Shown here one piece after another: positions 5,148 through 57,343 of a DNA stretch of 64,000 nucleotides. The position numbers and the translations under genes were made by a program. Position 1 is the stretch's first letter. Every line of letters starts with the position of its first letter. Under the pieces are notes generated by a model. That model made no database searches and was not told where the DNA came from. It was given only the letters and a program-made list of their open reading frames with translations. Source of the DNA: a virus (taxonomy: Duplodnaviria > Heunggongvirae > Uroviricota > Caudoviricetes); IMG/VR virus record IMGVR_UViG_2571042690_000019. One strand, written 5' to 3'.

Positions 5148-5191
5148 CATTTGTGTTAGAAAATACATATTAATTATCTAACACAAATGGG
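5148..5191. promoter_or_regulatory. inverted pair of operator-like motifs (14-bp perfect inverted repeat CCATTTGTGTTAGA / TCTAACACAAATGG, 16-bp spacer) upstream of the rdgC-dmt operon
   Basis: perfect inverted repeat read directly; each arm carries the TCTAACA core of the dispersed motif. Confidence 0.5.
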
Positions 5192-5199
5192 TGCATTTT

Positions 5200-5853
5200 C
5201 TATCCTTTCTTGAAATCGAAGTTGCCAGCAGTGGCCTGAAAGGTTCCCCCAGCCTTGAAAGCTATGTCCCCGTTAGCGGTGACAGCTATATTTTCCCCAT
5301 TAACATTGATGTTGTTGGCTGATTTGACGTTAACACTCCCTCCTGCATTCACGATTACATCAGCCGGACCAATGATATATATCTGCCCGGACTCATTCAT
5401 GCCAATCCTTGAGCCTGCTGCCGTATTGGCAATTTCATAGCCGCCACCAGCAGTTCGTACTTCAAGAATATTGTTGCGGTGAATAACGAAGTCTTTCGTT
5501 GCTGAGATTTGGGGGCGGGGAGGTGCTCCATCTACTTCCGGCGGCGTCCAGCCGTTGCCTTTGCCAGATGCTTCTGGTGCAACGTTTGGAATTCCTCCCG
5601 GTGCATCCTGAGCGGCACCAACTATCATTGGGCGTCTGGTGTCTATTCGACCGTTAACATCTAAATAAGGAAACTCTACCCAGACCAGGTCACCTTTGAC
5701 TGTAGGTACAAAAGCGTTCCCGATGGGTAACTGGTATTCCGCCCAGGGTAGATCGTCATCAGGAACGCCATTCCAGTCAGGTAAAACACGGACTTGAGCA
5801 CGCATAAGCCCTGCCGGGTGCACAGTTCCAACAATTTGCGCTCTACGCTTCAT
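5200..5853 (-). CDS. hypothetical protein, glycine-rich C-terminal repeats
   Basis: 217-aa ORF in an operon of four stop/start-coupled genes; no family recognised. Confidence 0.55.
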   Translation of the reverse strand: MKRRAQIVGTVHPAGLMRAQVRVLPDWNGVPDDDLPWAEYQLPIGNAFVPTVKGDLVWVEFPYLDVNGRIDTRRPMIVGAAQDAPGGIPNVAPEASGKGNGWTPPEVDGAPPRPQISATKDFVIHRNNILEVRTAGGGYEIANTAAGSRIGMNESGQIYIIGPADVIVNAGGSVNVKSANNINVNGENIAVTANGDIAFKAGGTFQATAGNFDFKKG

Positions 5854-6830
5854 TTGTTAGGCACTCCCAATATCATTCGTGTTGTGTAGCCTACGCGGTC
5901 CTCAAAGTGCGCAACATTTTTTACTATCAGCTTACGGGGCATTGATTCATCAATGCGGTTTTCCTGGTCATAGCGGTATACGATAATCTCTATTACCATC
6001 CCCGGTTTTATATCAGGATTGCCTGCGACTTCTATATCCATTTTGGGGACGAGAGACAGCTGCATATTGCGAAGAGTTTCCATATCAGAGTCGGATATAT
6101 AACGTACTGGGAGTGAGCTATCGCCATATTCGACGTAGCCATCGGTCATGGAATACCCAACAAAACGATATTGATTCTTTGCTGTTGTCGCATGTTCCTG
6201 TTGGAGTAGGCGCATTTTGGACAAAGTGTATTCTGCTTTAGGGTTATTCCCCTCGTAGGTAAATGATGGCGTTTGCTTCATCAGATCAGCCAGGGTGTAA
6301 AAGTTAAATTCCCCCCGGCATACCCAACATAATGCACCTTTGTCTCGCGCTATCTCCGAAAGCATTTTTGACGGTTTGTCACCGGCATTCAGATGATATG
6401 TAACTGCGCGTTTTAGCACGCTGCTGGTAATTTTAAGCTTGCCGGAATATGCCTTGAATATAGCGTCTGGTGTTTTGTTGGTATGTAAATTTGTGCGCGG
6501 GGAGGGGATCTTAAACCTGCGCACGTCTTCACTGACAGCAATAACGGTAACAACATCACCAGCCAGCATTGCAGACGTAACAAAGAAATCTGTTTTAAAA
6601 GTGCCTGCATTACCGTTTGGATCGCCCATTTCAGCCACCAGCGATGCACCGTATTTGGCTTTCCAGTCATCAATTACGGTGCCGGTAGCGTCATGAATTT
6701 CCAGTTTTAGCAAAGGGGCTTTGAGGCTGGTTTTTTCTACATATACTGCGGTAAAAATCCAGTCTCGTGGCACTTTGTTATCGTTAATGAGCACTGACTG
6801 TAGAAAATATTGTTGTAACTCCTGGGCCAC
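5850..6830 (-). CDS. hypothetical phage protein
   Basis: 326-aa ORF, start overlaps upstream stop. Confidence 0.55.
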   Translation of the reverse strand: MAQELQQYFLQSVLINDNKVPRDWIFTAVYVEKTSLKAPLLKLEIHDATGTVIDDWKAKYGASLVAEMGDPNGNAGTFKTDFFVTSAMLAGDVVTVIAVSEDVRRFKIPSPRTNLHTNKTPDAIFKAYSGKLKITSSVLKRAVTYHLNAGDKPSKMLSEIARDKGALCWVCRGEFNFYTLADLMKQTPSFTYEGNNPKAEYTLSKMRLLQQEHATTAKNQYRFVGYSMTDGYVEYGDSSLPVRYISDSDMETLRNMQLSLVPKMDIEVAGNPDIKPGMVIEIIVYRYDQENRIDESMPRKLIVKNVAHFEDRVGYTTRMILGVPNK

Positions 6831-6833
6831 TTA

Positions 6834-7601
6834 TCACCCCATAGATATCGAGGTTTCGGTAATAATACGTTTTGCGTCCAACTCCCATGCTGTGATCACG
6901 TCTGCAATCACACTTATCGGCGCTTGTGTGGCATAAATACGCTCTTCTCCAATTGGTGCTGAAACATCCGTAAAGCCGACTTCTTTGGCATCCTGTATCG
7001 AGCAAATCAGCGGGACCGGAACACGAACAAGGTGAGTGGTTGCTTCAAATTGTGTACCTGTCATCAGGCGAAGCCGTGCGCCCAGCGAATTACACATCAG
7101 ACTCATGGTCGCTTTATCAGTTGCCATTAACGTAACGTCATACGTCAGAATGGCCTGGGTGTATTCCAGTTCTGCTAAAGGCATTCCGGTATCCGGTTCG
7201 CAAAAACTGGCTACTTTTTTGCGGTCAATCTGCTGATCATCGTTGATATAATTGATATCCATAGTGCGTGAGATATTGACCAGGGGGAGAGCATCCCGGT
7301 TAATGTTCTGGTTTTCAGGTTTTCTCCCTTGCCCGGCATTTGCGCGACGAACTGCTTTAAGAAACTCGATCGCATTGTCGAAACGGGCCACATAGACACG
7401 CTCTGCTGGTGGACGATTCAAGAATGACGCAAAGCGTTTTTCTTCCGGCGCGGGGGCCACCAGTAAGATATCAGAAAAAATGTTGCTGATTAGCGTCGCA
7501 AACGCGTTATCCACGTTTTCAAAGCCCGTGGTCTGGAATTTTCCTGTGCGTGAGGTTTGCCATTCACCTGTTCGCGCCAGGAGGGTTTTATTTGAAGTCA
7601 T
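6834..7601 (-). CDS. hypothetical phage protein
   Basis: 255-aa ORF in the same operon. Confidence 0.55.
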   Translation of the reverse strand: MTSNKTLLARTGEWQTSRTGKFQTTGFENVDNAFATLISNIFSDILLVAPAPEEKRFASFLNRPPAERVYVARFDNAIEFLKAVRRANAGQGRKPENQNINRDALPLVNISRTMDINYINDDQQIDRKKVASFCEPDTGMPLAELEYTQAILTYDVTLMATDKATMSLMCNSLGARLRLMTGTQFEATTHLVRVPVPLICSIQDAKEVGFTDVSAPIGEERIYATQAPISVIADVITAWELDAKRIITETSISMG

Positions 7602-8401
7602 TCGATCACTCCGTTTTGAGTCGTATCAAAATTCCTGGCTGGTATGCAGTAGTAAAGCGAACCAACATGCTGTGTGCCGTAGCTAAAAATACGGTGCACG
7701 TACCACCAGCGGCGGGCTACGCCGTTTACCATCTCTTCATTCCATTCAAGAATTGAGCCGACGGGGACGTTATTTGCTGCAATACGCAGAATCAGAACAT
7801 CATCGGTTAAGCCATCCTGCTCACCGTCTGCGTCAATCGCATGGAAAGAGTCACGCCCGTCCGGGTTATCCAGCACATAAACGATTTCAGGTTCCTGGTA
7901 AGTCAGTTCGCGTTGGTTGTTATCCAGTTCAGTGAATGACTCTTCTCCTGTTTCGTCGCTGACTACCCCATATGTGCCAACATCTGGTCGATATAAGAGA
8001 GCCTGAAACGCGTCTGGGCTGGATTCAATAATCAGCATCCAGTCTGCGCGGATTTGGTCGTTAAAGGCTTTATGCCCGTTATAGCGTGCTTTTAACTGTG
8101 GAGTCGGTTCTCTGCCAGCCAGGGAAGATGGAAGTATGGCTATATCTGATTCGCCAGCATCCGGAGTAAGGCCACCGTTGCTATCAGCAAAATTATCATG
8201 GCTATCAGCTTTGGCGGCGGGTTGCTCTTCCAGAATGCTGAATGAATCCGAACCGGTATTGCCATGTTCCGGCGCGCCTCCTGCATTCGCTTCAATCGGC
8301 GCTGGCGTTTCTCTCTGCGTGCTGTCATGTTCTGACTCCTTACTTGCCAGGTTTGCATCGTCAGCAAACCATTCGTCAAAACGGCCCATAAGCATCCTCA
8401 A
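7598..8401 (-). CDS. hypothetical acidic phage protein
   Basis: 267-aa ORF, Asp/Glu-rich N-terminal half. Confidence 0.55.
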   Translation of the reverse strand: MRMLMGRFDEWFADDANLASKESEHDSTQRETPAPIEANAGGAPEHGNTGSDSFSILEEQPAAKADSHDNFADSNGGLTPDAGESDIAILPSSLAGREPTPQLKARYNGHKAFNDQIRADWMLIIESSPDAFQALLYRPDVGTYGVVSDETGEESFTELDNNQRELTYQEPEIVYVLDNPDGRDSFHAIDADGEQDGLTDDVLILRIAANNVPVGSILEWNEEMVNGVARRWWYVHRIFSYGTQHVGSLYYCIPARNFDTTQNGVIE

Positions 8402-9314: not shown

Positions 9315-9319
9315 AATTA

Positions 9320-15867: not shown

Positions 15868-16183
15868 ATTGGCAGCCTCCTTTGACTAAGTTAAGGAGCT
15901 ACCGCGTGAGGTTCCAATCTCAATGGCGGTAGCACTGACTGGGTTGGAACTACCGGCGTCAAAGGGAACCGGCCTGCCTTTCGGCAGCCCAGCCAGCACT
16001 ACCATTGATCTCTGAGCTAAACGCTAAGTATGGCTGTGCGATGGCATGACACAAAAAAAGACGCGTTCGGCGTCTGTGTCGCCTTTGACATTATCCGGGG
16101 TTCCAATCCCGGCACCCGTTTTTCTAAGGTGCCGTAGAAATATACCCCACGATAATGCCATGGCGCAACAGTCAGTATTTTAT

Positions 16184-16350: not shown

Positions 16351-16667
16351 GACACCCCCAGCGCGAGTAAAGAATGCAGATTATCGCGTGAGTGGTGGAC
16401 GACGAGTGATGGGAAAAGACTGTAGTTGTTCATAGTGTAGTGACTCCTTGCTTTCGGAGCCGCCATTGACTGTTCCACGGTCTGGTGGCGGCGCAATAAA
16501 GGCTGGAACACCGTGAGTCAACGGGGGCTTTTCAGCCACCTATATTGCACCGCCATAGGTATAGCGGCGGCAATAATACGAAAAACTAAACAGTTTGTCT
16601 CAAAAAGTTGACCGGTGTGCCAATCGGTAGTGAATGTACATCGGGGAAATTTACAATTCAACTTAAA

Positions 16668-16682
16668 ATGTTAGAAAACTAA
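16668..16682 (-). promoter_or_regulatory. operator-like motif TTAGTTTTCTAACAT
   Basis: member of dispersed conserved motif family. Confidence 0.4.
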
Positions 16683-17257
16683 TTTATCAATTCAATCGCC
16701 ATCTGATACAACGCCATTTCATCGGCATTGTGCCGTATGAAATCTGCTTTTCCGCCTATTTTTCCATCAGCATGAACAGGGACCAGCCAGGGATATTGTT
16801 CTCGGACCTCGGCTGGCGCTGCGTACTGGTGGTGCCATTTACACAAAGGGAGGACATATTTATGCGCGTTCTCTGCCGTTCTCCCGAAGATATGGTGCAG
16901 GGATACTACTGGGCTATGTTGCCCGTGAATATGGCAGGCAATGCAGGGGAGAGTACCGATAGCGGTCTGTATCCGGCGTTCATCGGCTGTGAGTGATCTG
17001 CCCTTCAGGCCGCGTGACGTGCGTGTTTTTTTGGGCGGAGCGGATACAGCTTTATCTTTTCTCCGCTGTTCATATTGCTTTGCTTTTTCAATTTTCTTTT
17101 GCCGATATTCAGGCGATGCGGCTTTTTCTCTCGCTCGCTGCTGCTGGCGTTGAGCTTGTTGAAGGCGCTTTGCCCTTTGTTCCTCTCGCCAGGCCGGGTC
17201 AGCCAATTTTTGCATGGCTTTTTGTCTCTGTTTCTCCCAATAACTCTGTTTCTGCAT
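16679..17257 (-). CDS. ref: Ref-like HNH-type protein (basic disordered N-terminus plus His/Cys-rich C-terminal domain)
   Basis: 192 aa; N-terminal 95 aa Lys/Arg/Gln-rich; C-terminal LPCIACHIHGQH...LHHIFGR...CKWHHQ; matches the described architecture of P1 Ref, no sequence alignment available. Confidence 0.5.
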   Translation of the reverse strand: MQKQSYWEKQRQKAMQKLADPAWREEQRAKRLQQAQRQQQRAREKAASPEYRQKKIEKAKQYEQRRKDKAVSAPPKKTRTSRGLKGRSLTADERRIQTAIGTLPCIACHIHGQHSPVVSLHHIFGRTAENAHKYVLPLCKWHHQYAAPAEVREQYPWLVPVHADGKIGGKADFIRHNADEMALYQMAIELIN

Positions 17258-17323
17258 GATGGCAGTCTCTTACTTTTCAACGATTTTTCTATGATTGATC
17301 AAAATGGTTAGATATTCAAAATT

Positions 17324-17337
17324 GATTTTCTAACATA
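17324..17337 (+). promoter_or_regulatory. operator-like motif GATTTTCTAACATA between divergent ref and plus-strand operon
   Basis: dispersed conserved motif followed by TAATAT. Confidence 0.45.
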
Positions 17338-17374
17338 AAACATTAATATCATTCCTGATAACTGTTTGGAGGAC

Positions 17375-22533: not shown

Positions 22534-22576
22534 TCAAATCATTTACGCACTCAAAATGCGTTAGAACATTGATTTT

Positions 22577-22590
22577 AGTTTTCTAACATA
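22577..22590 (+). promoter_or_regulatory. operator-like motif AGTTTTCTAACATA with partial inverted copy just upstream
   Basis: dispersed conserved motif about 40 bp upstream of gene 22631. Confidence 0.45.
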
Positions 22591-22630
22591 TTATTTTACC
22601 GCTCGGAACAAAACAGAGTCGGTATACATT

Positions 22631-28684: not shown

Positions 28685-28704
28685 TACTGTATGAATAAAC
28701 AGTA
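28685..28704. promoter_or_regulatory. LexA (SOS) box upstream of humD
   Basis: TACTGTATGAATAAACAGTA fits CTGT-N8-ACAG consensus, ~20 bp before the humD start. Confidence 0.7.
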
Positions 28705-33443: not shown

Positions 33444-33516
33444 AGCACCCTCCTAAATAGGCGAGGGTACTTTACAGCAAAGGCGTTAATCTAAAAAGAT
33501 GTGTTAGAATTTTAAT

Positions 33517-34545
33517 TTACGAATCCATCAGGCGGCTATTAGCCCCCACAGACACGCCGCCACGGCGAAGATACCGCATAAGTGTTTCCGGTTTCTTCCA
33601 GGTTCCTTCCTGCATGATCTCCACCATAGACACCTGCTTTTCAGCCATATCAATAGCGGCCCCGACGCGTGCACTATGCCCAGTCCACGTCCGGTATCTT
33701 CCTTTGTTTGGCGTAGCATCTCTTTTATTCAGCAACACCCAGGCGTCGCTGAATATTTTCTCCATTGCAGGTGCAGTAAGGGGCGTTGTCGTAATCCTGG
33801 CCTTATTGCTACGGTGTATCGGCGGGAACAGCACCGCGTCAGGATGTTCACGAAGCCCGGAAACATCCAGCCAGTCATTCAGCACAGCAGTAGTGCGACG
33901 GGAAAGCACCTTATCAAGCCCGGCGGCGGTCGTTATTGTCTTCGTGTGTGAAATATGTAGCGTGACAGTGTCACCTGTTTGGTCCAGATCTCCTACACGA
34001 ATACGCGAGATTTCCGACATACGCATCAGCGTATTGTATGCAACAAAGAGAAAAGCCCGGTTGCGCTGGTCCACCAGCCGTTCTGACCTGGACAGCAGGA
34101 CGTCGAGCAGTTTCAGGTCGTCCCACCGCAACGGTATAGCCTGGCCTGTTCGCTCGCCTTTTTCCGTTGCCGCTTCACGCCGGATGCGCCGCATGGCCAG
34201 AGACACACTTTTATCGTCCGACAGCGGCGGGAGGCCACATTGCGAAAGCAGCATGTTAAGCATGGCATAGTGCTTATCAATGGTGGTCGAAGCCAGATCA
34301 GCATCATGCAGCTGAAGAAAATACTCGCGGGCCATCTCTGGTGAGATCGGGAACCAGGCGAGCTGGCGAGCGTGACACCATCTCGCCCAGGAGTGAAACA
34401 CTAACCGGAGATCGCGCAAAGTATTCGGCGCGTAAGCCCCCTGGTCATTCATGAACCGCATAAAGTTTTCTGCGGCCTCCTGGTACTCTTTGCCAATGTT
34501 GCGCAGAAAACCACCGGAGCTGCCAGAGATAATTAATTTACTCAT
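33517..34545 (-). CDS. dre: Cre-family tyrosine site-specific recombinase (Dre-like)
   Basis: 342 aa colinear with Cre; catalytic-region match GHSARVGAA...GTW...RYLRR (His, Arg, Trp, Tyr positions conserved); adjacent site matches the D6 rox sequence as I recall it. Confidence 0.8.
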   Translation of the reverse strand: MSKLIISGSSGGFLRNIGKEYQEAAENFMRFMNDQGAYAPNTLRDLRLVFHSWARWCHARQLAWFPISPEMAREYFLQLHDADLASTTIDKHYAMLNMLLSQCGLPPLSDDKSVSLAMRRIRREAATEKGERTGQAIPLRWDDLKLLDVLLSRSERLVDQRNRAFLFVAYNTLMRMSEISRIRVGDLDQTGDTVTLHISHTKTITTAAGLDKVLSRRTTAVLNDWLDVSGLREHPDAVLFPPIHRSNKARITTTPLTAPAMEKIFSDAWVLLNKRDATPNKGRYRTWTGHSARVGAAIDMAEKQVSMVEIMQEGTWKKPETLMRYLRRGGVSVGANSRLMDS

Positions 34546-34697
34546 GAAACTATTTAACCTCTATATACAGATGACGCTACGCGAAAAATATAAAAATGAC
34601 AGGGTAGCTATAAGTTAATTTTCAAGATTCAAGCCTTTGATCCGAGGCACGTATTTTCAGTGATGTCAACACTGATCATCTACCCATGATTATAGCC

Positions 34698-34729
34698 TAA
34701 CTTTAAATAATGCCAATTATTTAAAGTTA
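34698..34729. promoter_or_regulatory. lox-like recombination site (rox-type): TAACTTTAAATAAT-GCCA-ATTATTTAAAGTTA
   Basis: perfect 14-bp inverted repeat with asymmetric 4-bp centre; outer TAACTT...AAGTTA shared with loxP; ~150 bp upstream of the recombinase start. Confidence 0.75.
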
Positions 34730-34910
34730 TAAAATGCCGATTTTTTTTAATCCATCATAGATTGATGATGACCAGTAACACGTTGCCTTCATGGTCTTTA
34801 ATTTGCGAAGTGTGGTTTCTACGGTTGGTTTTCTAAAATTGATGACAAAAAATCACAGTTCGATCCTTTACTCACTCTGTTATTCGACATAAATTTGTCA
34901 TAGTAATTTT

Positions 34911-34925
34911 ATGTTAGAAAACTAA
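34911..34925 (-). promoter_or_regulatory. operator-like motif TTAGTTTTCTAACAT immediately upstream of gene 34940
   Basis: dispersed conserved motif 15-29 bp before ATG. Confidence 0.45.
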
Positions 34926-34939
34926 ATCGAGTAGGAATA

Positions 34940-35977
34940 ATGAGTAAGAAGTCGATCGAGAAAGAGTACAAACGGTTCCTGCAAACCGCTGAACGGTGGA
35001 AAGAGCTGGTGGTCGCAAACTCTGTTTTCCATGATACCAGTTATGCTGGCGAGGAATTCCGCCATGTTGCATTAACGCATGACCAAAACATATTAGAAGA
35101 AGCTGAAAAATGTCTTGCTGAATGGAAAGCCTTCGTTGACATGTGCCGCGATGCCGACGGCAAAGCGTCGAACATTGTTGAGTCTGTATATTCTCCGATC
35201 CCATTCATCATTGAGGACACCAATCAAAGCACGCATGTCGTTGTGCAAAGCGCTACAACAACACGTACATTTACACGTGAACAATTGCTAAAAAAATACG
35301 ACAAAATCATAAAGAAAAGCCTTAAAAATAGGGTTTTTTCTCAAATCGTAGGTGATCTTGAAGAAGAACAGCGCTTCTTTGAAGCTGAGCCTGAAGGCGA
35401 GATCTACCGGGCGCGTAAAGAGGCATATACAGATGTTGTGCTGACAACAAACATCGAAGGCAGCAATGCCCTTTCTCGCTTTAGAGTTGGCGCACATGGT
35501 GCATTGGTTTTCGCAAGACTACCGAAGACAACGATCCCCGTTGTCAATAATGTTGGTGAACGCCGGAGCATTACAATTTATTCTGGCGTCGAATCGGTAC
35601 CTTGCAGCCTTCTCGGCGATTTTAACTTATATCGTGTTCGTGACCTGGAAAAACACCAGCCAAGCTATGTTGCGAAGTCGTACATCTTAAGGAACATCGA
35701 TATTCGCAATGAAAGCCTTAAGCAGAAATCCGCTAAGATGCTGGAGGATGCCGATCCGGCTATTCGCCATATCATTGAGCGTAAGATACGTACATCACGT
35801 GAAGCAATGGCAAGGCTGGATAAAATGGATCTGGAATTGTTAGACGTAATGATGGCCTCTGGAGACGACCTGACCGGCATTAAACTGAATGAAGCTCGTA
35901 AAAAATACGGCAAAGCAATCGAAGAACGTTACGGATACACATTCCCCCAAACGCAGTACGCCGCGAAGCTCTGGTAA
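34940..35977 (+). CDS. hypothetical protein at the position of the P1 immunity repressor c1 (between pacB and the lox site)
   Basis: 345-aa ORF with RBS; functional call is by synteny only, no sequence similarity to C1 could be confirmed. Confidence 0.55.
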   Translation: MSKKSIEKEYKRFLQTAERWKELVVANSVFHDTSYAGEEFRHVALTHDQNILEEAEKCLAEWKAFVDMCRDADGKASNIVESVYSPIPFIIEDTNQSTHVVVQSATTTRTFTREQLLKKYDKIIKKSLKNRVFSQIVGDLEEEQRFFEAEPEGEIYRARKEAYTDVVLTTNIEGSNALSRFRVGAHGALVFARLPKTTIPVVNNVGERRSITIYSGVESVPCSLLGDFNLYRVRDLEKHQPSYVAKSYILRNIDIRNESLKQKSAKMLEDADPAIRHIIERKIRTSREAMARLDKMDLELLDVMMASGDDLTGIKLNEARKKYGKAIEERYGYTFPQTQYAAKLW

Positions 35978-37513: not shown

Positions 37514-38877
37514 TAATCATCCTCCGGCGGTTCTATCGCGATATCATCATCTCCGGCGTCATACCCTGCATCAGATGCATCATAATCACCGTAAATTTCA
37601 GCCGTTGCCGAAGGGTCAATATCCAGCTCTTCGTCGTTGGCCTCGAATTCTCCAGCTTTACGCTCGCCATTGCGGTCGTAATCTCCGCACCCCAATTCTT
37701 CAACAATGGTTGCCACATCCGCCCGGCGCTCTGCCAGCCATTGCGGATGGTTAGCCTGAAGCGTTGCAAACTCCCTTGCCTCTTTGTCCAGCTGTTCATC
37801 ATCAACATCATTGACGTCAGAAACAGGTGGTTCGAGAAGAGTGATAGCTTTCGCCGCGCGCGCCGCGAGGATAGCCGGGACGCTGACACCCTGGCGCTCG
37901 ATGTATTCAGCAACACCGATATCATCCAGTTCCTCGCGCTCACGCATACGTATAGCGGCGGCGATAACTCTGGCTGCGCGTGCGTCAGCGCCAATGCGAT
38001 ATTCAATCTCTTTGCCACGCTGTTCGGCCTGTAGGCGTGCTAATTCGAGTTTTTCTCTGGCCTCAGCCTCTTTGAATGCTTGCTGGCGAGCGCTCTGACG
38101 AAGCTTTTCATCCCCCTGTCGCAGCTTTTGTTCGGACTGATATATAGCTGCCAACCTACTGATAAAATCATTCATGTAGTAGGCCGCGTCACTGATTAGA
38201 CCGAGAAGGCGCTGCCCAGGGTGCATTCCTTCTGGCTCTTTATCGCCCAAGGCGTCTATTTCCGCCTGTAGACGTTCGGCCTCCTGATCAACAATGCTTT
38301 GATACTGAAGTGCGCGCTCTTGCGCCATTTGAATTGCTAACCGCAGGTGTTCTTCTGCGCCGTTCTTCATCATATCGCGAGCCACATTCGTAGTTGGCAA
38401 TGTGGCACGCTGCACAGCACCGTCAGGGATCATTGCAGAAGATCCCTCAATTTTTGGGGCGTTTTTATCTTCTTCGGGGATCATTTTCGCCATTTTTTCG
38501 CGCAATGATCTCCTGACAGATTCTTTTATCTCATTGTTATTATTTGAATTATTTTCATGATCCGAAGTTTTCTTTCTCGGCATACTTCGGAAAGAACCTG
38601 CGCCCTGCGAATTGTCAATTTCTGTAAATTTTGTTTTTTCTGCACCCTCTTCCAGCTTTTTTGTTGCTCTTCCCGCCCGTTTTTTTTCAGGTGATTTGGT
38701 GCTTTTTTTTGTTGTCTTTACCTGCGACCGCACCTCATTTTTTTTCATATTGAGATGCTTTCTGGCTGTATTGAAGCTAAGGCCATGCTCCTCACAGTAT
38801 TCCTTTACAGTGATCCCTTTTTCTTCACGCAACGCTATAAAGCGGGCGCGGTGCTCCTCCCAATTAACCAGACTCAT
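37513..38877 (-). CDS. pacA: terminase small subunit-like protein (PacA-like), acidic C-terminus
   Basis: 454 aa directly upstream of and coupled to large terminase; N-terminal HTH-like segment; synteny pacA-pacB-c1-lox-recombinase. Confidence 0.5.
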   Translation of the reverse strand: MSLVNWEEHRARFIALREEKGITVKEYCEEHGLSFNTARKHLNMKKNEVRSQVKTTKKSTKSPEKKRAGRATKKLEEGAEKTKFTEIDNSQGAGSFRSMPRKKTSDHENNSNNNNEIKESVRRSLREKMAKMIPEEDKNAPKIEGSSAMIPDGAVQRATLPTTNVARDMMKNGAEEHLRLAIQMAQERALQYQSIVDQEAERLQAEIDALGDKEPEGMHPGQRLLGLISDAAYYMNDFISRLAAIYQSEQKLRQGDEKLRQSARQQAFKEAEAREKLELARLQAEQRGKEIEYRIGADARAARVIAAAIRMREREELDDIGVAEYIERQGVSVPAILAARAAKAITLLEPPVSDVNDVDDEQLDKEAREFATLQANHPQWLAERRADVATIVEELGCGDYDRNGERKAGEFEANDEELDIDPSATAEIYGDYDASDAGYDAGDDDIAIEPPEDD

Positions 38878-39266
38878 AAAGCAACACCACGCTTTTTAAC
38901 GGCGGCATTCCACAGCTTATTCGCCATGTCCACCAGCTCTCGTTGCTCTTTTCGCGCCTGTTCGACTGATTTCCTGCTACAGTTTTTAACCAGTAAACTG
39001 CCATATTCAGGGGTTCGCCCACGCACCTTGAACTGATATCCGTTCAGGCCATGCAACCAGTATTTTCGTGGGTAAACACGATCATCAAGCTCACAGATTG
39101 CCCTGCTTGAACGAACAAAATGACGAATGATGTTAGTTACACTTACTCGTGAAACATGGAGATGAGGGTATTTTTCTTTGGCGAGAGTGGTAATTTCAGT
39201 GACTGTCAGATAGCAGTCAGCCCTGATCATGATATCCGCAATTTCTGCGCTGCTGATTTGTTCCAT
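38874..39266 (-). CDS. hypothetical protein, possible late-gene activator (Lpa-like) by position
   Basis: 130-aa ORF coupled to pacA start; function inferred from P1 gene order only. Confidence 0.35.
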   Translation of the reverse strand: MEQISSAEIADIMIRADCYLTVTEITTLAKEKYPHLHVSRVSVTNIIRHFVRSSRAICELDDRVYPRKYWLHGLNGYQFKVRGRTPEYGSLLVKNCSRKSVEQARKEQRELVDMANKLWNAAVKKRGVAL

Positions 39267-39374
39267 TAATCCCCCGGGCAGGAAATGACCGAGGGGATGA
39301 TAATGAGAATGTTAAAACTGTATAGACTGGTAAAAAGATGATTGTATTAGAAAATTAATACTAAATATCTAATG

Positions 39375-39767
39375 CTACCAGCGAGACAAACGAACAACAT
39401 GTTTCACTTTTGCGATCCACTGTCCGCGATAACTATTGATTACGGCCTGTGCCAGCTTCAAATTGGCTTCAAAATCAGCCTTACTACCATCAGACTCCAC
39501 CAGCATTCCTCCATCTATTTCTGGTAAACATAGATAATCCTGCTCAACCTGCAGCGGCATTGATGGCTCTCTGAATGGGGTTACTTGCTCTGCTTTCCAG
39601 CGAAATCTAACCCTTATCCCCCTGGTGGTCATTACTAGATAGCCTGTTATAGTGCTTTTATGGCCCACATCAGTACGCGTGGCATTGCATGACACGATCT
39701 TACAGTTAGCGATAGACCACTCCATATTGGTGGCCTGTTGAGTGCTTAATTTGGTAGTCCCGTACAT
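39375..39767 (-). CDS. hypothetical protein
   Basis: 130-aa ORF. Confidence 0.45.
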   Translation of the reverse strand: MYGTTKLSTQQATNMEWSIANCKIVSCNATRTDVGHKSTITGYLVMTTRGIRVRFRWKAEQVTPFREPSMPLQVEQDYLCLPEIDGGMLVESDGSKADFEANLKLAQAVINSYRGQWIAKVKHVVRLSRW

Positions 39768-40796: not shown

Positions 40797-40872
40797 TGGT
40801 GGCCCCTACCGGACTTGAACCGGTGACCGTGCGATTATGAGTCGCCAGCTCTAACCACTGAGCTAAGGGGCC
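40797..40872 (-). tRNA. tRNA-Ile (anticodon CAU, ileX-like) or tRNA-Met
   Basis: GGCCCCTTAGCTCAGTGGTTAGAGC...CTCATAA...GGTTCAAGTCC...GGGGCCACCA; cloverleaf folds; near-identical to E. coli ileX as recalled. Confidence 0.75.
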
Positions 40873-41857: not shown

Positions 41858-41944
41858 TGGCGGAGAGTAATGGAATCGAACCATCATCGCTTGCGCAATG
41901 GGACGGTTTTCAAGACCGTTTGAGCACCATGCTCCCTACTCTCC
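41858..41944 (-). tRNA. tRNA-like gene, possibly tRNA-Ser (anticodon UGA), non-canonical A8
   Basis: 7-bp acceptor stem, anticodon arm ACGGT-CTTGAAA-ACCGT similar to E. coli serT, long variable arm, TTCGATT T-loop, 3' CCA; D-arm atypical. Confidence 0.35.
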
Positions 41945-42561: not shown

Positions 42562-42637
42562 TGGTGCCGATTAACGGACTCGAACCGCTGACATCCTGCT
42601 TACAAGGCAGGCGCTCTACCAACTGAGCTAAACCGGC
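42562..42637 (-). tRNA. tRNA-Thr (anticodon UGU)
   Basis: GCCGGTTTAGCTCAGTTGGTAGAGC...CTTGTAA...GGTTCGAGTCC...CGGCACCA cloverleaf. Confidence 0.8.
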
Positions 42638-42639: not shown

Positions 42640-42715
42640 TGGCGATGGTGGATGGATTTGAACCATCGACCCGTTGATTAACAGTCAACCGCTCTAACCG
42701 CTGAGCTACACCATC
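42640..42715 (-). tRNA. tRNA-Asn (anticodon GUU)
   Basis: GATGGTGTAGCTCAGCGGTTAGAGC...CTGTTAA...GGTTCAAATCC...CACCATCGCCA cloverleaf. Confidence 0.8.
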
Positions 42716-43572: not shown

Positions 43573-43934
43573 ATGTTGAAGATGTGCATTGATGATTAGA
43601 TGCAGCATGTACCGTTACTCTCTGCCGGACCATCATCAATGAACACCTTAAAAAGACCTTCCGTGGCTCAACATGTATTGTCGTTTACTCCGCAAAGTGC
43701 TCTCTCTGAAACCACTTTCCGCACTAAACCTGTTGAACTTTGGTCTGCTCGGTGCCAAAGCGTGCTCTTGGTTTACTATACTTTTCTAACACTTTAATTT
43801 GTTAATTGCTGGTGGGCATACAATAACCAATAAGTGACTATCAAGCCCAGCAAGCGAAACGTGGGTACCGCCCACCAGCAAGGAAAATTCTATGTTAAGT
43901 CATCTTCACAATCAATACATTCAAATTGTGATTT

Positions 43935-43948
43935 TAGATTTCTAACAC
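43935..43948 (+). promoter_or_regulatory. operator-like motif AGATTTCTAACACA
   Basis: dispersed conserved motif at 3' side of gene 43950..45158. Confidence 0.4.
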
Positions 43949-43949
43949 A

Positions 43950-45158
43950 TTATTTCCCGTAAAGATCTTCTACACCCCCATTCTTCTTATCCCATTCGTT
44001 CGCCCATACCCGGCAAGCGTCAATGATTTCCTGACGACGATCTCCTTGCATGAACGGAATGCTTTCATGGAAACAGCTTGGAATGCAGGCCACACTGAAT
44101 ACAGTATCAAACTCCGTCTGCTTGATTGCCTCCAGCGTCTCCGGACGCATTTTTAATTCATCGATTGGCGCATCCTTAGAGTCCATAATCCGGCGATATA
44201 AGCGCGGAAAATCCGTCTCCAGGTACGCCATAATTTTATCTGCGAGACATTCGTCTATGTCGGTATTCCAGTCCTTTTCGAAGCCCGGCAGGCGATAGTA
44301 AAGCGGCGTTCCCCATACCGATGGGATCACATCCATCGTTAACAGGCGATTAGTTCTGATTTGTTGATGGTAATTAGCCGTCAGCAGTGCTTCGCCACGC
44401 TGCCCAGTTTCCGCAACCAGGCTGTGCGGATACTCATGGATGTAGGCAATGGCATCCCTTCCATCATACATAAGTGGAAATGTCTCTGGTCTTTGTCCCA
44501 TGCCACAAGCACGGTTCAGATCGTGACCAAGCTGTGAACACTCTCGCTTTAATGTTTCGATAATGCTCTGCGCTGTAGCCAACTTTTTACGCAGTGTGAC
44601 GCCTTCGCCTTGATAATCAATGCATTGCTGATTGAGCTTGGTTAAACGCTCTTTTAGTTCCCGGCGCTCTCTTTTCAGCGTGCGGTTATCCTTCTCCGCA
44701 ACATCCAGCCGCTTTGTCAGGCTTGGCGGATAGTCTTTTTTGTAACGGTTCAAATCGGCTTCGGCAGATTTACGCAGTGTATTTGCCTGTTCAAGACGCG
44801 CTTCCAGATTGCCGATCTCATTACGCATATTCGCGGCAAATTGATTAACTGCATCGCCCAGGCTTTCAACTGTCGCTGATACGCCTGTGACTTGTGAAAA
44901 ACGGATCAAGCCATCATTAACGGCTTGTTGGTATTCCTCAAACTGATCCACCAGCTTATTGTAATCAACTGCCCCATCATCAAGCAGCTTGTTGATTTCC
45001 GCCACTAGGTTATCTGTAGTGGCAATGACACTCTCGTGCAGTCGCTTTGACAGGTCATCACCCGGATTCCGTTTCTGTATAAGAGCGATTTGTGTGCGCA
45101 GCGTTTCAATTGCTGTCGAGATAATTTCCAGATTAGAAGTATCAGTGTGTTGACTCAT
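43950..45158 (-). CDS. hypothetical protein, N-terminal coiled coil, C-terminal globular domain
   Basis: 402-aa ORF flanked on both sides by operator-like motifs. Confidence 0.6.
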   Translation of the reverse strand: MSQHTDTSNLEIISTAIETLRTQIALIQKRNPGDDLSKRLHESVIATTDNLVAEINKLLDDGAVDYNKLVDQFEEYQQAVNDGLIRFSQVTGVSATVESLGDAVNQFAANMRNEIGNLEARLEQANTLRKSAEADLNRYKKDYPPSLTKRLDVAEKDNRTLKRERRELKERLTKLNQQCIDYQGEGVTLRKKLATAQSIIETLKRECSQLGHDLNRACGMGQRPETFPLMYDGRDAIAYIHEYPHSLVAETGQRGEALLTANYHQQIRTNRLLTMDVIPSVWGTPLYYRLPGFEKDWNTDIDECLADKIMAYLETDFPRLYRRIMDSKDAPIDELKMRPETLEAIKQTEFDTVFSVACIPSCFHESIPFMQGDRRQEIIDACRVWANEWDKKNGGVEDLYGK

Positions 45159-45183
45159 TGCTATTCCCGTTACTTTGTTAAAT

Positions 45184-45198
45184 TATTTTTCTAACATA
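45184..45198 (+). promoter_or_regulatory. operator-like motif TATTTTTCTAACATA
   Basis: dispersed conserved motif ~30 bp upstream of gene start at 45158. Confidence 0.45.
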
Positions 45199-45240
45199 TA
45201 TTATTAGTTTGATGACAGTATCGAAAGATGCAATAAACAA

Positions 45241-45782: not shown

Positions 45783-46277
45783 TTAATCAAGACAAACATA
45801 CTCCGTGATAGCTTTTATGGCTTCAGCGGCACTGCGCGCCTCAAAGCAGTAGTAACCGGCTTCTGTGAGGCGAGTCATCCAGACGAGTTGTTCGGGAGTC
45901 AGGCGATTTCTCCCATGTTTCATCTCAATGCGCATTCCGTGGTATCCCCCACAAGCAAGGTCTATAGAAAGATCGGGATATCCCTTCTTTTGGCCCTCTG
46001 CCACCATTTTTATTGCCGTCCTTATGCCTCGCAGGCCACCGTTTGGAGTGGCGTGAGTATGCTCATACACATAACGCATATTGCGATACATCCAGTCCAG
46101 GACGCGAACCTGCTCGTAATGCTCATGGTTCCTTTTGATTAGATCTGGGTTTTTCTCCAGTTCTCTAAGAGCTGCGGCATGTGGGGATGTTTCAGAATAT
46201 TCACTGCGACGCCTTCTCTTTCGCGCTATTTTTCTAACACACCCATTGATAGTAAATATGCGAAATAATAACAACAA
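45783..46277 (-). CDS. VRR-NUC-like nuclease domain protein (true start probably downstream of 46277)
   Basis: GYPDLSIDLACGGYHGMRIEMKHG pattern; operator-like motif lies within the first codons of the longest ORF. Confidence 0.45.
   Translation of the reverse strand: MLLLFRIFTINGCVRKIARKRRRRSEYSETSPHAAALRELEKNPDLIKRNHEHYEQVRVLDWMYRNMRYVYEHTHATPNGGLRGIRTAIKMVAEGQKKGYPDLSIDLACGGYHGMRIEMKHGRNRLTPEQLVWMTRLTEAGYYCFEARSAAEAIKAITEYVCLD
46228..46242 (+). promoter_or_regulatory. operator-like motif TATTTTTCTAACACA
   Basis: dispersed conserved motif. Confidence 0.4.
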
Positions 46278-46413
46278 CGTTAGATTTGTAAAACAAGAGA
46301 GATACTACTCAAGGATGGTCTATATGCAACAGGTCGGATTTGCTTTTAGAGTAAAGAGTGACCTTAATCAACAAGGAGGGTAAATCGCATGGCATTTACC
46401 CAACCTGTTATTT

Positions 46414-53984: not shown

Positions 53985-54135
53985 AGGATTTCCCCCTCTA
54001 AACCGTAAAAAATTCCGCTATGCGGTACGGTTGAGAGGGTATGGAGAATGTTATTTTCAGGGGGACGATACTACCGTCAAAATCACATACTCCCCATAGT
54101 TTGCCTACTTATTAACCCATGACCGGGGGAAAAAT

Positions 54136-54621
54136 ATGGCAAACATTGAACCTCGCTGGCTAATTGAAGCCCGTAAGCACATTGGCCTGACTGAAATAAA
54201 AGGCGCTAAACACAACCCTGAAATCGTTCAGTTCTGGCGCGACATCAAGCGCGGCGGAATTAAAGACGATGAAACGCCGTGGTGCGCAGCATTTGTCGGT
54301 GCAATGCTGGAACGTGTAGGCATCCGCTCAACAAGATTTGAGTCGGCAAAATCCTATCTGGATTGGGGCGAGAAATTAGATACACCGGCATACGGATGTA
54401 TCGTTGTATTTACCCGCGTAGGCGGTGGGCACGTAGGCTTCGTTGTCGGACGCCGCGCCAATGGCGATCTGCTTGTCTTGGGTGGGAACCAGGGGGATGC
54501 GGTAAATATTCGCGCATTCCCAACATCAAGAGTGTCTGGCTATCGCTGGCCTGCTGGCGAACCACGCAATACCGCTCTGTTACCAGTCGGAGACGCAGCA
54601 ACCTCAACTAATGAGGCATGA
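54136..54621 (+). CDS. hypothetical protein, possible CHAP/NlpC-P60-like hydrolase (TIGR02594-type)
   Basis: 161 aa with conserved Cys (ETPWCAAFVG) and His (GGGHVGFVVG) spaced as in CHAP-like domains. Confidence 0.45.
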   Translation: MANIEPRWLIEARKHIGLTEIKGAKHNPEIVQFWRDIKRGGIKDDETPWCAAFVGAMLERVGIRSTRFESAKSYLDWGEKLDTPAYGCIVVFTRVGGGHVGFVVGRRANGDLLVLGGNQGDAVNIRAFPTSRVSGYRWPAGEPRNTALLPVGDAATSTNEA

Positions 54622-54650
54622 AAAAAGCCCCGGCCTGGCCGGGGCATCAC
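54621..54650. terminator. terminator hairpin (GCCCCGG-CCTGG-CCGGGGC) with A-run upstream, T-run on minus strand
   Basis: ends the minus-strand antirepressor operon. Confidence 0.55.
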
Positions 54651-54653
54651 GCT

Positions 54654-54854
54654 TCAAGTCACGATCCAATCATTACCGACTATATCAGCCGTCGATAAAT
54701 CAACTTCCCGGATCTGGAGTCCATTAATACAAAACCATCCGGTAGTAGAGTAATTATCAGGCCAGGCCCATACACCAACACTCCATGCTTTACGGCGGCA
54801 CACTTCAGCCTGTCCTTCCCTGATTTTTTTTACCGCCTGCATGATGTCCATCAC
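54654..54854 (-). CDS. small protein homologous to the C-terminal domain of antirepressor 14474..15652
   Basis: CRRKAWSVGVWAWPDN...DWIVT aligns with CRRSSWPEGIWVWPEG...DWIVS. Confidence 0.5.
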   Translation of the reverse strand: MMDIMQAVKKIREGQAEVCRRKAWSVGVWAWPDNYSTTGWFCINGLQIREVDLSTADIVGNDWIVT

Positions 54855-55558
54855 TCACCTCCCCAACCGATCACCTGGAATTGCCCCATTTTGGGGTGAT
54901 ACCAGCGTTTTCCTCGGTGTTCAGCCTCCGACATCATCCGGTTAAAAGAATTCATGAAGGGAGATAAGGCCACGATGGAACGACGCGACAATACCCCCTC
55001 TGGAGTTAAAAACTCATGTGTATCGGTGGGAATCCGGAAAGCGTTAACCAGGTTGCGGCATTTGGCTTCGGTCAGGCCACATTTCGCCGCCAGCTGGCGG
55101 TAGCCAATGTAACCTTCCGGCATATTGCCCTTCTTGATTTGCTCGACGGTTTCAGCGACCTGGCTAACCTTTGACTCAACAGCATGAAGCCGCTTTTGCT
55201 GCTGAACTGCATTTGCAGCCATTGCGGCGATCATCTCTATTTCGGTCAACGGCTGGCGTACTTGTTCTTCCAGTTCGCGCCAGCGGTCCACCAGCCGGGC
55301 AGTAAACTCAGGACAAAGCTGTGCGACTACAATGATACTGTCTCGTTTGCCTTGCTCGTCGCTAAATCGGAACACCTGAATTAATCGAGAACGCCCCATT
55401 ACATCTATTTTTGGTTCATCCTCAATTTGAGGACGAACAATAACGCCGGATTCGGCTAATGTTTCAATGGTACGCTTCACATTGTCATGACGTTTTCCCA
55501 CCAGCTCCGCGATCTCAATGCTGGTCATTGATGGCTTTTCAAGAATGCAGATATCCAT
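54851..55558 (-). CDS. phage antirepressor-like protein (Rha/Ant family)
   Basis: MTSIEIAELVGKRHDNVKRTIETL and central region homologous to 14474..15652; start set at internal Met overlapping upstream stop. Confidence 0.65.
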   Translation of the reverse strand: MDICILEKPSMTSIEIAELVGKRHDNVKRTIETLAESGVIVRPQIEDEPKIDVMGRSRLIQVFRFSDEQGKRDSIIVVAQLCPEFTARLVDRWRELEEQVRQPLTEIEMIAAMAANAVQQQKRLHAVESKVSQVAETVEQIKKGNMPEGYIGYRQLAAKCGLTEAKCRNLVNAFRIPTDTHEFLTPEGVLSRRSIVALSPFMNSFNRMMSEAEHRGKRWYHPKMGQFQVIGWGGE

Positions 55559-55782
55559 CAGTGTGCCTCCGCAATGCCGGGATTGGTAATATTGCGATAC
55601 CAAGGATTAGTGTTTGGTTGTGGGGAAGTAGAGAAACGACCAGTAAGAACACCATGCTGATCAGGGATCAGAGAACGGGCTTCTTTTTCGGTTGCGGCAA
55701 TTGCGAAGTGATCGCAGTGTTTTTGCAGGGAGTGGAAACGCCAGATGAATTCTGGACGTGAGCAAGGATTGGCATTAACCAT
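55558..55782 (-). CDS. small protein upstream of antirepressor (paralog of 15652..15867)
   Basis: shared EFIWRF..S.QKH...AATE.EARS segments. Confidence 0.5.
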   Translation of the reverse strand: MVNANPCSRPEFIWRFHSLQKHCDHFAIAATEKEARSLIPDQHGVLTGRFSTSPQPNTNPWYRNITNPGIAEAH

Positions 55783-56128
55783 AGTTACGGCCTCACTAAC
55801 AGGTTTAACAACCTGCTACCCGCTGTCAAACAGGTGGCAGGACGTGACAGGGTTGACAGACTGGCGTTAGTGAAACCAGCAGGCCGAAGCCTCCCCATCA
55901 CGCCCCACCATAATTCGGGCGTAACGTGGTTTACGGACACAAAAATACCGCAATATCGGAAATCTGCGGTTGTCCGCACTAACATTCAGGCTGTCAAACC
56001 TGGTCGCAGAATTTGCTACGACGGCATGAATATAAGCCTGAAAACATGGAAGATCAACTAAAAATTTCAGCAATGGATGACTTCAGTCGATGATGCAGAT
56101 CATACATTCCGATTTAGAAACAGCAAAT

Positions 56129-56143
56129 TAATTTTCTAACATA
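56129..56143 (+). promoter_or_regulatory. operator-like motif TAATTTTCTAACATA
   Basis: dispersed conserved motif. Confidence 0.4.
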
Positions 56144-56195
56144 AATCATCGAGCGGGCATTTTCCGATCATTGGGATGCTTTGTAGACACACAGG

Positions 56196-57158
56196 TCATC
56201 CCCTAAAGCCCGCCGGGATTGACCAATCCTCACGGTCAAATTCAGACCGATAGCCACGCTGTTTCATCAGGTCAAAGGCTTCACCAATGGTTGCACACCC
56301 CTGGGAGCCAGAATAATCCATTGAGAAATCCAGGGCACTGGATTGTTTAGGCTTATTCACTGCGGTAGCGGCACTACGTATCCATGCAAATTTTTTTGCC
56401 AGCTTTTCAGCGGTACGATACAGAGCCTGCCGTTTTGCGTGCCCCTCGTCTGAACGACGCTTTGCAGCTCTCGCTTTTGCCGCCGCCAGGCAGTGGTTGG
56501 TATGTTCTTCCCTGATTACTGGTTTTTTATCCAGCACCCCATTATCCGCTTGAGAACTATCTGCTGGTGAAGCCTTTGGCTGAACCGCGCATGATCTTTC
56601 TCTTCTTTTTGCTATAGAGTGACTCTTATTTTCTATTGGCTGTTCATTTTGAACATGGGGGGGCTTGTTCAATTTGAACAGGGGGTTCCCAGTTTCAAAA
56701 AAATAACGAACCTTTGAAATCAACTGCTTAACCAGTTTTGTGGCGTTGGCAAATTTGATGCCCTGCTTACCCCCTATCTCCATTGCTACATGAATGAAGT
56801 GGAGAAATTGTGTCGTAAACCGATATACGTTACACACCTGGGCATTGTTATTCGCTACCTGATGTTGCTTAACAAGCATTCCGCACTTCGTCGCTTCAGC
56901 AAATGCCCTGCGCACAGTAGAAATACTGCGTCCTGTAATCTCGGACATATCAGCATATGAGCGACGGATCATGTATTCATCGGTAGCCCCTGCCAGGTTG
57001 GCGAACTCGGCAATAATGGCGCTATGTGAAGGGGAAAGAAGACCGCTATGACGGGCAAAAAAACTCAACTGATGACCTTTGATTTTTTTGTGGTATTCAG
57101 TGTTGTTTTTATACTCAGAAGTGTTGAAAGTTACTGAAACTGAATTTAAAATACTCAC
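56196..57158 (-). CDS. putative replication-initiation-type protein with HTH (RepL-like)
   Basis: 320 aa; HTH-like MSEITGRSISTVRRAFAEATKCGML; operator-like motif ~170 bp upstream. Confidence 0.4.
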   Translation of the reverse strand: MSILNSVSVTFNTSEYKNNTEYHKKIKGHQLSFFARHSGLLSPSHSAIIAEFANLAGATDEYMIRRSYADMSEITGRSISTVRRAFAEATKCGMLVKQHQVANNNAQVCNVYRFTTQFLHFIHVAMEIGGKQGIKFANATKLVKQLISKVRYFFETGNPLFKLNKPPHVQNEQPIENKSHSIAKRRERSCAVQPKASPADSSQADNGVLDKKPVIREEHTNHCLAAAKARAAKRRSDEGHAKRQALYRTAEKLAKKFAWIRSAATAVNKPKQSSALDFSMDYSGSQGCATIGEAFDLMKQRGYRSEFDREDWSIPAGFRG

Positions 57159-57330
57159 CAGATAGTTCCGTGAAAAAATCTATCTACCGTATAAATCTAT
57201 GCCAGTGGATTTATACACCAAAAAGCCGCTTCTCAGCGGCTTTTGCTTTTTTTGGCAGTCGCTACCGGAGCAGTGACCGCGATCCTACTCGATCCCATCC
57301 ACCAGGATCAACAGTGTATATAAATACACT

Positions 57331-57343
57331 ATGTTAGAAATTT
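57331..57343 (-). promoter_or_regulatory. operator-like motif AAATTTCTAACAT upstream of RepL-like gene
   Basis: dispersed conserved motif. Confidence 0.45.

Follow-up and report, generated by a model that had tools for sequence, protein, structure and literature searches.

Regulatory sequences that recur across a whole phage genome raise the question of which protein reads them. This question is posed by a 64,000-nucleotide stretch of virus DNA (IMG/VR record IMGVR_UViG_2571042690_000019, the whole of which we refer to as the window), in which a first-pass annotation had pointed to a short motif dispersed over most of the sequence and had likened it to the operators of the phage P1 repressor C1. 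We find that these sites are very probably the operators of a heteroimmune repressor, the C1-type product of a gene at 34940-35977, and that they form the counterpart of the P1 C1 network; it is homology with the P1 system that underlies the assignment to C1. Escherichia phage D6 (MF356679) is 98-99% identical to the window, as are some 90 near-full-length 'D6-like' plasmids of E. coli and Salmonella. D6 is a P1-like plasmid prophage, and the window is thus a D6-type relative of P1; the D6 genes were transferred to it by BLAST. The D6 GenBank record marks the rox and cix sites and does not have operators among its features, and full-text literature searches returned no description of D6 operators, the primary D6 genome paper lying outside that coverage.

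A dispersed and asymmetric motif

The 14-mer AWTTTTCTAACAYA has three exact matches in the window where 0.00 are expected. With up to two mismatches there are 17 matches (2.19 +/- 1.65 expected), and the largest number in any shuffle is 7. The core TTCTAACA is present in 12 copies (1.35 expected), and among the 8-mers of the window only Chi is more strongly over-represented. A strict 20-bp matrix (ANNTTANWTTTCTAACAYA) built from 13 sites scores these at 18.6-31.6, with all other positions in the window at 14.4 or below and 0.2 sites scoring 14 or more in shuffled sequence; low-threshold iterative refinement of the matrix drifted into AT-rich noise and was dropped in favor of this strict version. 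The 13 strong sites are spread over 5151-57348 rather than forming one control region. The complete D6 genome contains 14, the additional one preceding orf52 beyond the window, and 13 of the 14 are centred in non-coding DNA, in a genome of which coding sequence takes up 89.8% (binomial P = 1.6e-12).

The first-pass list of copies holds up, in that each was found again to within 1 nt (Table 1), their number exceeds anything reached in the shuffles, and the description of them as mostly intergenic agrees with the non-coding site centres in D6. However, the list overlooked two strong sites, at 33499-33518 (-) and 39342-39361 (-), as well as weaker partners or neighbours at 17303, 22556, 39358, 43775 and 46277. 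The AT-rich, -10-like hexamer said to follow the motif is seen as TAnnnT/C directly behind TTCTAACA in about nine of the 13 sites, and sites are indeed located before the rdgC-dmt genes, ref, the gene at the c1 position and the RepL-like gene, paralleling the P1 C1 operators, with further parallels listed in Table 1.

When 40 sites from four genomes are combined, the profile is A..TTA.WTTTCTAACAYA over about 19 bp, with conserved bases also upstream of the 14-mer and with two C's in the core that are invariant in all 40. The information spans -9 to +9 around TTCTAACA and has no dyad, so that the site is asymmetric. P1 has 22 dispersed operators with an asymmetric 17-bp consensus, through which C1 controls repL and lpa among others (PMC8546580); for comparison we used the 'phage repressor C1' protein_bind features of the P1 record. 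A match of 10 of 14 positions to the P1 consensus had been claimed for the motif, and this is arithmetically right when the two are aligned on TCTAA. The same register and orientation is the best one in a matrix-to-matrix alignment (13.4, against 10.2 for the next).

The C1 homologue and proposed operator dialects

The gene at 34940-35977 corresponds to D6 gene 1, recorded as 'prophage repressor, similar to P1 C1', and is flanked by pacB and dre/rox. Its product matches P1 C1 by BLASTP with 21% identity over 268 amino acids (aa) (E=1e-8), and PF27008 (Phage_P7_repressor_C1) is the precomputed Pfam family for D6-type and P1/P7-type proteins alike. Judged by these sequence comparisons it is a distant but real homologue of C1. 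Together with the P1-like positions of the sites and the TCTAA core, this homology supports the C1-type operator network originally proposed, and by analogy with P1 we take C1 to be the binding protein and its binding to repress transcription.

We compared the window with a Shigella dysenteriae plasmid, the loci L014 and L015, Leclercia pE1_003, a Citrobacter plasmid, CP060164 (loci L012 and L013) and P1. In the Shigella plasmid, with a C1 of 69.5% identity, there are 17 copies of TTCTAACA at equivalent places (1.7-2.6 expected); in alignments the core is intact at 11 of 11 orthologous places, including those with diverged flanks, and the sites are 78.5% identical compared with 65.5% for their flanks. 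Contigs with C1 proteins 51% and 44% identical retain TTTCTAACA before c1, lpa and the pdcB-like gene, and after the recombinase gene and pmgS. Thus TTCTAACA is kept where C1 is 44-100% identical, while at about 30% identity or below other flanks surround TCTAA. The sequence ATTCTAAGG occurs seven times in Leclercia pE1_003 (0.24 expected) and six times in the Citrobacter plasmid (0.33 expected), and ATTCTAAAT, in the fifth lineage represented by CP060164, nine times (0.27 expected). Cross-counts in five genomes of four repressor lineages show that the enriched core is lineage-specific and the matrix essentially diagonal: 15 copies of GCTCTAAT in P1 (2.3 expected), 12-17 of TTCTAACA in D6 and Shigella (1.3-2.8 expected) and 8-9 of TTCTAAGG in Leclercia and Citrobacter (about 2 expected). 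The exception is a mild excess of TTCTAACA in Citrobacter, with six copies where 2.3 are expected. All of these dialects have TCTAA in common, and the D6, Leclercia and P1 matrices align in the same register and orientation.

The bases flanking the core differ between P1 and D6 (GC..TA and TT..CA respectively), and the window sites do not match the P1/P7 consensus ATTGCTCTAATAAATTT beyond TCTAA. This difference in flank specificity accounts for the absence of each type of operator from the other genome. There are no P1-type operators in the window, where the best P1-matrix score is 12.1 compared with 17-28 for the operators of P1 itself and GCTCTAAT is at background (2 copies, 1.8 expected); nor are there D6-type strong sites in P1, where the strict matrix reaches at most 15.6. 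With specificities this unlike, heteroimmunity at the level of C1 is expected between D6-type and P1-type elements.

Site geometry, promoters and alternative regulators

At four loci (5151/5167, 17303/17319, 22556/22572 and 39342/39358) a second site on the opposite strand is positioned exactly 16 bp to the left. The partners, usually the weaker of the two, score within the top 2e-4 of all positions, and 16 bp is the only offset that scores. In Shigella three of the pairs are perfect, with the form TGTTAGAA-N14-TTCTAACA. The fixed spacing suggests that two C1 molecules could sit adjacent to each other on one face of the DNA. Eight of the strong sites are co-oriented with the gene downstream and lie 11 to about 200 bp from start codons, and a TTGnnA hexamer is often found 16 bp upstream of the TAnnnT/C hexamer that follows the core.

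We propose that in a plasmid prophage C1 would be bound to about 13 strong and at least six weak asymmetric sites of about 19 bp, each at the head of an early or regulatory unit. These units are the hrdC-methylase genes, ref and the divergent early operon, pdcB, the post-dre operon, c1, lpa, the tRNA-tci operon, pmgS, pmgM-pmgR, the two c4-icd-antirepressor modules and repL. With the sites occupied, RNA polymerase would be stopped at weak sigma-70 promoters or just past them, such that repL (lytic replication), lpa (the late-gene activator) and the antirepressor genes would be silent and c1 would be autoregulated. The site just ahead of c1 at 34909, with the degenerate one at 34822, is by analogy a candidate counterpart of the P1 Oc1 cluster, acting in autoregulation, in control of leftward transcription, or in both.

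Several observations weigh against this proposal. Firstly, the D6 pairs are divergent, with TTAGA to TCTAA about 21 bp centre to centre, whereas the P1 Oban and Oc1ab pairs are convergent and about 13 bp apart. Reading the D6 site in its reverse complement relative to the P1 operator would give a P1-like pair geometry, and was rejected on the alignment scores (10.2 against 13.4) and because site-to-gene orientation would be flipped. Secondly, the sites at 43931, 45180, 46223 and 56125, and the weaker one at 43775, are anti-oriented to the flanking genes, and those at 43931 (+) and 45180 (+) resemble promoters antisense to the pmg genes; simple promoter occlusion does not explain these. Thirdly, a generic sigma-70 consensus scan of the region gave no enrichment (15 found, 18 expected), promoter-like sites being located beside only a few operators, at 43915-43887 (-), 45175-45204 (+), 46292-46265 (-) and 39324-39297 (-). 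It is for this reason that we infer, rather than observe, promoter overlap and occlusion. Finally, a counterpart of the P1 Coi/ImcA/ImcB module was not found in the D6 type. There is no open reading frame (ORF) of more than 55 aa between dre and c1 that could encode Coi, and the 86-aa ORF after ulx, at the position of lxc, has no BLASTP similarity to Lxc, although small, fast-evolving proteins of either kind could escape detection; the circuit is therefore probably not a copy of that in P1.

This last dissimilarity would also suit an arrangement in which the sites belong to some other phage regulator, such as a second repressor, an antirepressor-linked factor or Lpa. We had considered co-variation of the operators with the repressor as a test specific to C1, and it failed as such, since Lpa, Dre, PmgS and other phage proteins diverge in step with C1; parallel divergence of this kind makes a host factor less likely without pointing to C1 in particular, and must be counted among the points against our proposal. 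However, the TCTAA core, register, orientation and genomic places of the sites are those of the experimentally defined P1 C1 operators, and we consider another regulator improbable. As for Lpa, the sites precede lpa, c1, repL and c4 and not late structural operons, which argues against their being Lpa-type late promoters. The P1 late -22 box, AAGTGACTT, is unrelated to the motif in sequence and is not enriched in the window (three copies, 3.0 expected), and a late-promoter role for the motif was rejected on these grounds. There is nevertheless an lpa homologue at 38874-39266, and because AAGTGACTT-N4-TAnAAT is not enriched, late promoters of the D6 type must use another box.

More doubtful still is the suggestion that no dedicated repressor is involved, and that the motif is either a module common to early promoters or a site for a host factor (IHF, Fis or an RNA polymerase element), conserved through the descent of these promoters from one another. 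The core does often fall between TTGnnA and TAnnnT hexamers at sigma-70-like spacing, as at 45175-45204. But this places it in the spacer, which sigma-70 does not read, and neither the five anti-oriented sites nor the inverted pairs at a fixed 16-bp offset are expected of a promoter element. Moreover, the motif differs among phage lineages of the same or close enterobacterial hosts, which have the same RNA polymerase and nucleoid proteins, and P1 lacks it in the same host. Chance clustering of an AT-rich word can be dismissed, for although intergenic DNA is AT-rich and the core is flanked by A/T runs, the observed counts were never reached in dinucleotide-preserving shuffles, the C's are invariant and the sites are conserved at orthologous places.

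If the sites are C1 operators as we propose, they define the master-repressor regulon of a common group of elements. About 150 plasmid records carry a D6-type C1, and phage-plasmids of the D6-like and P1-like kinds are found commonly in E. coli, Salmonella and Shigella, such that the D6-type operator predicts immunity or heteroimmunity between co-resident phage-plasmids. The dialects would also constitute natural, probably orthogonal repressor/operator pairs in which TCTAA is constant and the flanks vary, providing a test bed for the evolution of DNA-binding specificity.

Neighbouring features and comparison with known systems

The candidate operators and other features are listed in Table 1.

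Table 1. Candidate operators and associated features of the window; scores are from the strict matrix unless noted, s and w denote strong and weak sites, and 'offset' is the spacing of paired sites in bp.
Feature	Position (strand)	Score	14-mer match	Context	P1 counterpart	Conservation
Candidate bivalent operator	5151-5170 (-), 5167-5186 (+)	24.7 s, 27.7 s; offset 16	5152-5165 (-), 5172-5185 (+)	11-27 bp upstream of hrdC(rdgC)-methylase operon	Odmt	Both halves in Shigella
Candidate monovalent operator	16666-16685 (-)	27.4 s	16667-16680 (-)	3' end of ref; heads orf86-orf85-isrK/c4-icd-ant (immI-1) operon	Omat/Oc4	Core in Shigella
Candidate bivalent operator	17303-17322 (-), 17319-17338 (+)	7.8 w, 28.5 s; offset 16	17324-17337 (+)	Between divergent ref (-) and orf88 early operon (+)	Oref	Both halves perfect in Shigella
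Candidate bivalent operator	22556-22575 (-), 22572-22591 (+)	14.4 w, 28.9 s; offset 16	22577-22590 (+)	40 bp upstream of pdcB-like gene (DUF968)		Shigella, L015
Candidate monovalent operator	33499-33518 (-)	26.3 s		Immediately past dre recombinase gene; 56 bp upstream of orf117-orf116-dut-orf114-isaA operon	Ossb (by position)	Sites at the orthologous place, in the dialect of each genome, in Shigella, L014, Leclercia, Citrobacter and 'Acinetobacter' plasmid
Candidate degenerate operator, TTTTCTAAAAT	34822-34841 (+)	Under strict threshold; 14.6 with relaxed matrix		About 100 bp upstream of c1		Shigella; full TTTCTAACA at equivalent place in L014 and L015
Candidate operator	34909-34928 (-)	28.0 s	34910-34923 (-)	12 bp ahead of c1 start codon, aimed at rox/dre		Shigella, L014, L015
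c1, presumed repressor gene	34940-35977 (+)			345 aa; 99.6% identical to D6 gene 1		
Candidate bivalent operator	39342-39361 (-), 39358-39377 (+)	26.1 s, 10.5 w; offset 16		76 bp upstream of lpa (late promoter activator)	Olpa	Both halves perfect in Shigella; also in L014
Weaker site with exact TTCTAACA	43775-43794 (+)	13.8		Between pmgS and tRNA genes		Orthologous pair in L014 (16578+, 16703+); sites in Shigella too
Candidate operator	43931-43950 (+)	27.1 s	43936-43949 (+)	3' end of pmgS; adjoins promoter-like TTGATT-17-TAGAAT, 43915-43887 (-), heading tRNA-tciA-tciB operon	Oban (by position)	
Candidate operator	45180-45199 (+)	29.7 s	45185-45198 (+)	10 bp ahead of pmgS, anti-oriented to it; past terminator-like hairpin (45265-45240, -) downstream of pmgR	OpmgRa/b	Conserved island amid diverged flanks in Shigella
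Candidate operator	46223-46242 (+)	18.6 s	46228-46241 (+)	Within annotated 5' end of pmgM	O26	Only TTTCTAACACA conserved with Shigella in this pmgM stretch
Weak neighbour	46277-46296 (+)	13.5 w		Overlaps -35 of a 10/12 promoter-like site (46292-46265, -)		
Top-scoring candidate operator	56125-56144 (+)	31.6 s	56130-56143 (+)	53 bp past repL; about 90 bp ahead of a1b1/c4-icd-ant (immI-2) module	Oc4, by position also Orlf	
Candidate operator	57329-57348 (-)	25.9 s	57330-57343 (-)	171 bp upstream of repL (lytic replication)	OrepL	Shigella
C4 RNA	15922-16009 (-)			Rfam; isrK upstream at 16054-16132 (-)		
C4 RNA	55830-55915 (-)			Rfam; c4-a1b1 target upstream at 55983-56035 (-)		
Four tRNA genes	40797-40872, 41858-41944, 42562-42637, 42640-42715 (-)			ARAGORN and Rfam		

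Two C4 antisense RNAs are recognized by Rfam. Behind each come icd and an antirepressor gene, the latter not the same in the two modules, and the 16666 and 56125 sites head these modules; the presence of two (15922-16132 and 55830-56035) shows that the immI region is duplicated relative to P1. The four tRNAs have a CAT anticodon (Met/Ile2-type) or correspond to Ser-TGA, Thr and Asn, and lie downstream of the 43931 and 43775 sites, with tciA and tciB after them. In P1 it is the bivalent Oban that stands at the head of the tRNA-tciABC-ban operon (P1 record). The D6 GenBank record has three tRNAs on the + strand and leaves the CAT tRNA unannotated.

Additional promoter-like and palindromic sequences are present near several sites. 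The positions 43931-43950 and 45175-45204 coincide with sigma-70-like promoters (TTGTGA-16-CATTAT and TTGTTA-16-TATATT) antisense to pmgS and pmgR, which could produce C1-controlled antisense transcripts, or the sites could simply be operators downstream of (-)-strand promoters. At rox, and directed toward dre, TTGGCA-16-TATAAT at 34689-34716 (-) is the top match (11/12) to the sigma-70 consensus in the 13.5-kb stretch scanned. A perfect 18-bp palindrome, AGTGTATATAAATACACT, at 57313-57330 abuts the 57329 site and is retained with it in Shigella; it occurs once in the window, which excludes a repeated element, and it may serve the lytic-replication promoter as a second regulatory site. Among the 3-mismatch matches to the palindrome was a LexA-box-like sequence, ACTGTATGAATAAACAGT, at 28686-28703; in P1, humD is preceded by a LexA site.

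Some segments of the window depart from D6. A single 764-aa ORF at 1963-4257 takes the place of D6 dmt and dcm, hrdC (4235-5140) is only 84% identical to its D6 counterpart, and the antirepressor genes have 89-92% identity; by sequence comparison the methylase region, hrdC and the antirepressor genes are mosaic patches in a genome otherwise 98-99% identical to D6. Chi (GCTGGTGG / CCACCAGC), the most over-represented 8-mer of the window, has 44 copies (3.4 expected), nearly all of them CCACCAGC on the + strand, as in every P1-like genome examined. Among the relatives, CP060164.1 is labelled Acinetobacter venetianus; it has 55% GC, 89 Chi sites, and blaCTX-M-3/ISEc9 and TEM-1, and this P1-like plasmid looks to be of enterobacterial rather than Acinetobacter origin. 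About 16 copies of a palindrome, TGTTTATAAACA, surround its repA and are presumably iterons.

The predicted structure of C1 suggests a comparison with Tus, the replication terminator protein of E. coli. An AlphaFold2 model of D6-type C1 has a predicted local distance difference test (pLDDT) score of 85.5, and for D6-type and P1-type models alike Tus is the sole match in the PDB, with similarity over most of the chain and modest template modelling (TM) scores of 0.33-0.46. A separate P1/P7-type model (98% identical to P1 C1; pLDDT 78.3) matches Tus with E values of 1e-8 to 5e-8 and TM-scores of 0.40-0.46 over about 315 columns, the next match having E=0.14. Two arginines, R157 and R159, are invariant across the family and lie on a long predicted beta-strand. 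At the sequence level C1 was found to resemble neither Tus nor any other protein of solved structure, a profile search of PDB sequences being without Tus; nor did a Pfam scan of C1 give a match to PF05472 (the Tus family), or full-text literature searches any mention of a C1-Tus link. On the strength of the models we consider a fold relationship likely. P1 C1 is a monomer (biochemical literature of 1988-1995), and Tus is a monomer on an asymmetric site. A monomeric C1 fits the asymmetric operator, and these three considerations (the site, the P1 biochemistry and the Tus-like predicted fold) point to D6-type C1 probably binding as a monomer too. The fuller picture, in which D6- and P1-type C1 proteins are structural relatives of Tus that act as monomeric clamps on the TCTAA core, with lineage-specific flanks setting immunity specificity, is possible but one that we hold tentatively. 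The Ter site contains ..TATGTTGTAACTAA.., which may resemble the reverse-complement D6 site ..TATGTTAGAAAAnTAA..; the possible resemblance is not used as evidence.

A Tus-like fold, if confirmed, would explain a monomer on an asymmetric site, would give Tus a phage-plasmid relative and would bear on its origin. According to Galli et al. (PMC6549158), only a few clades have the tus gene, which probably arose by domestication of a plasmid gene. Dispersed C1-operator complexes might then be orientation-dependent roadblocks to polymerase or helicase in addition to promoter occluders, a role that could account for the anti-oriented sites and for the inverted site pair flanking repL/oriL. The two systems differ in that Tus acts at an asymmetric 23-bp site as a replication terminator, unlike C1, a repressor with many promoter sites, and there is no evidence for polar fork arrest or a locked-cytosine mechanism for C1.

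The lambdoid CI/Cro system also has a prophage repressor silencing lytic promoters and itself, as proposed here, but its operators have dyad symmetry, bind helix-turn-helix dimers and form two control regions, whereas the D6 sites are asymmetric and genome-wide. The closest system is P1/P7, whose homologous PF27008 repressor is likewise encoded between pacB and the lox/rox recombinase gene. As in D6, P1/P7 has many dispersed asymmetric sites with a TCTAA core in the same register, some forming bivalent operators. Those of P1 are located at the orthologous operons (dmt/hrdC, ref, c4-icd-ant, repL, lpa, tRNA/tci or ban, pmg and c1), with Odmt, Oref/Omat, Ossb, Oc4, OrepL/Orlf, Oban, O26, OpmgR, Olpa and Oc1 as counterparts of D6 sites. 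The differences are in number (about 14 strong sites in D6, 22 in P1), in pair arrangement (divergent with a 16-bp offset in D6, convergent with an 11-bp offset in P1 Oban and Oc1ab), in the two c4-icd-ant modules of the D6 type compared with one in P1, and in a C-terminal helical extension of about 60 aa in the D6-type repressor that P1 C1 lacks. The Leclercia pE1_003 and Citrobacter plasmids (ATTCTAAGG) and CP060164 (ATTCTAAAT) share the architecture, TCTAA core and site positions of D6, namely before c1, rdgC, ref, lpa and pmgS-like genes and after the recombinase gene. Their core-flanking bases differ and their C1 proteins are no more than 30% identical to the D6 type, and CP060164, like P1 and unlike D6, has convergent pairs.

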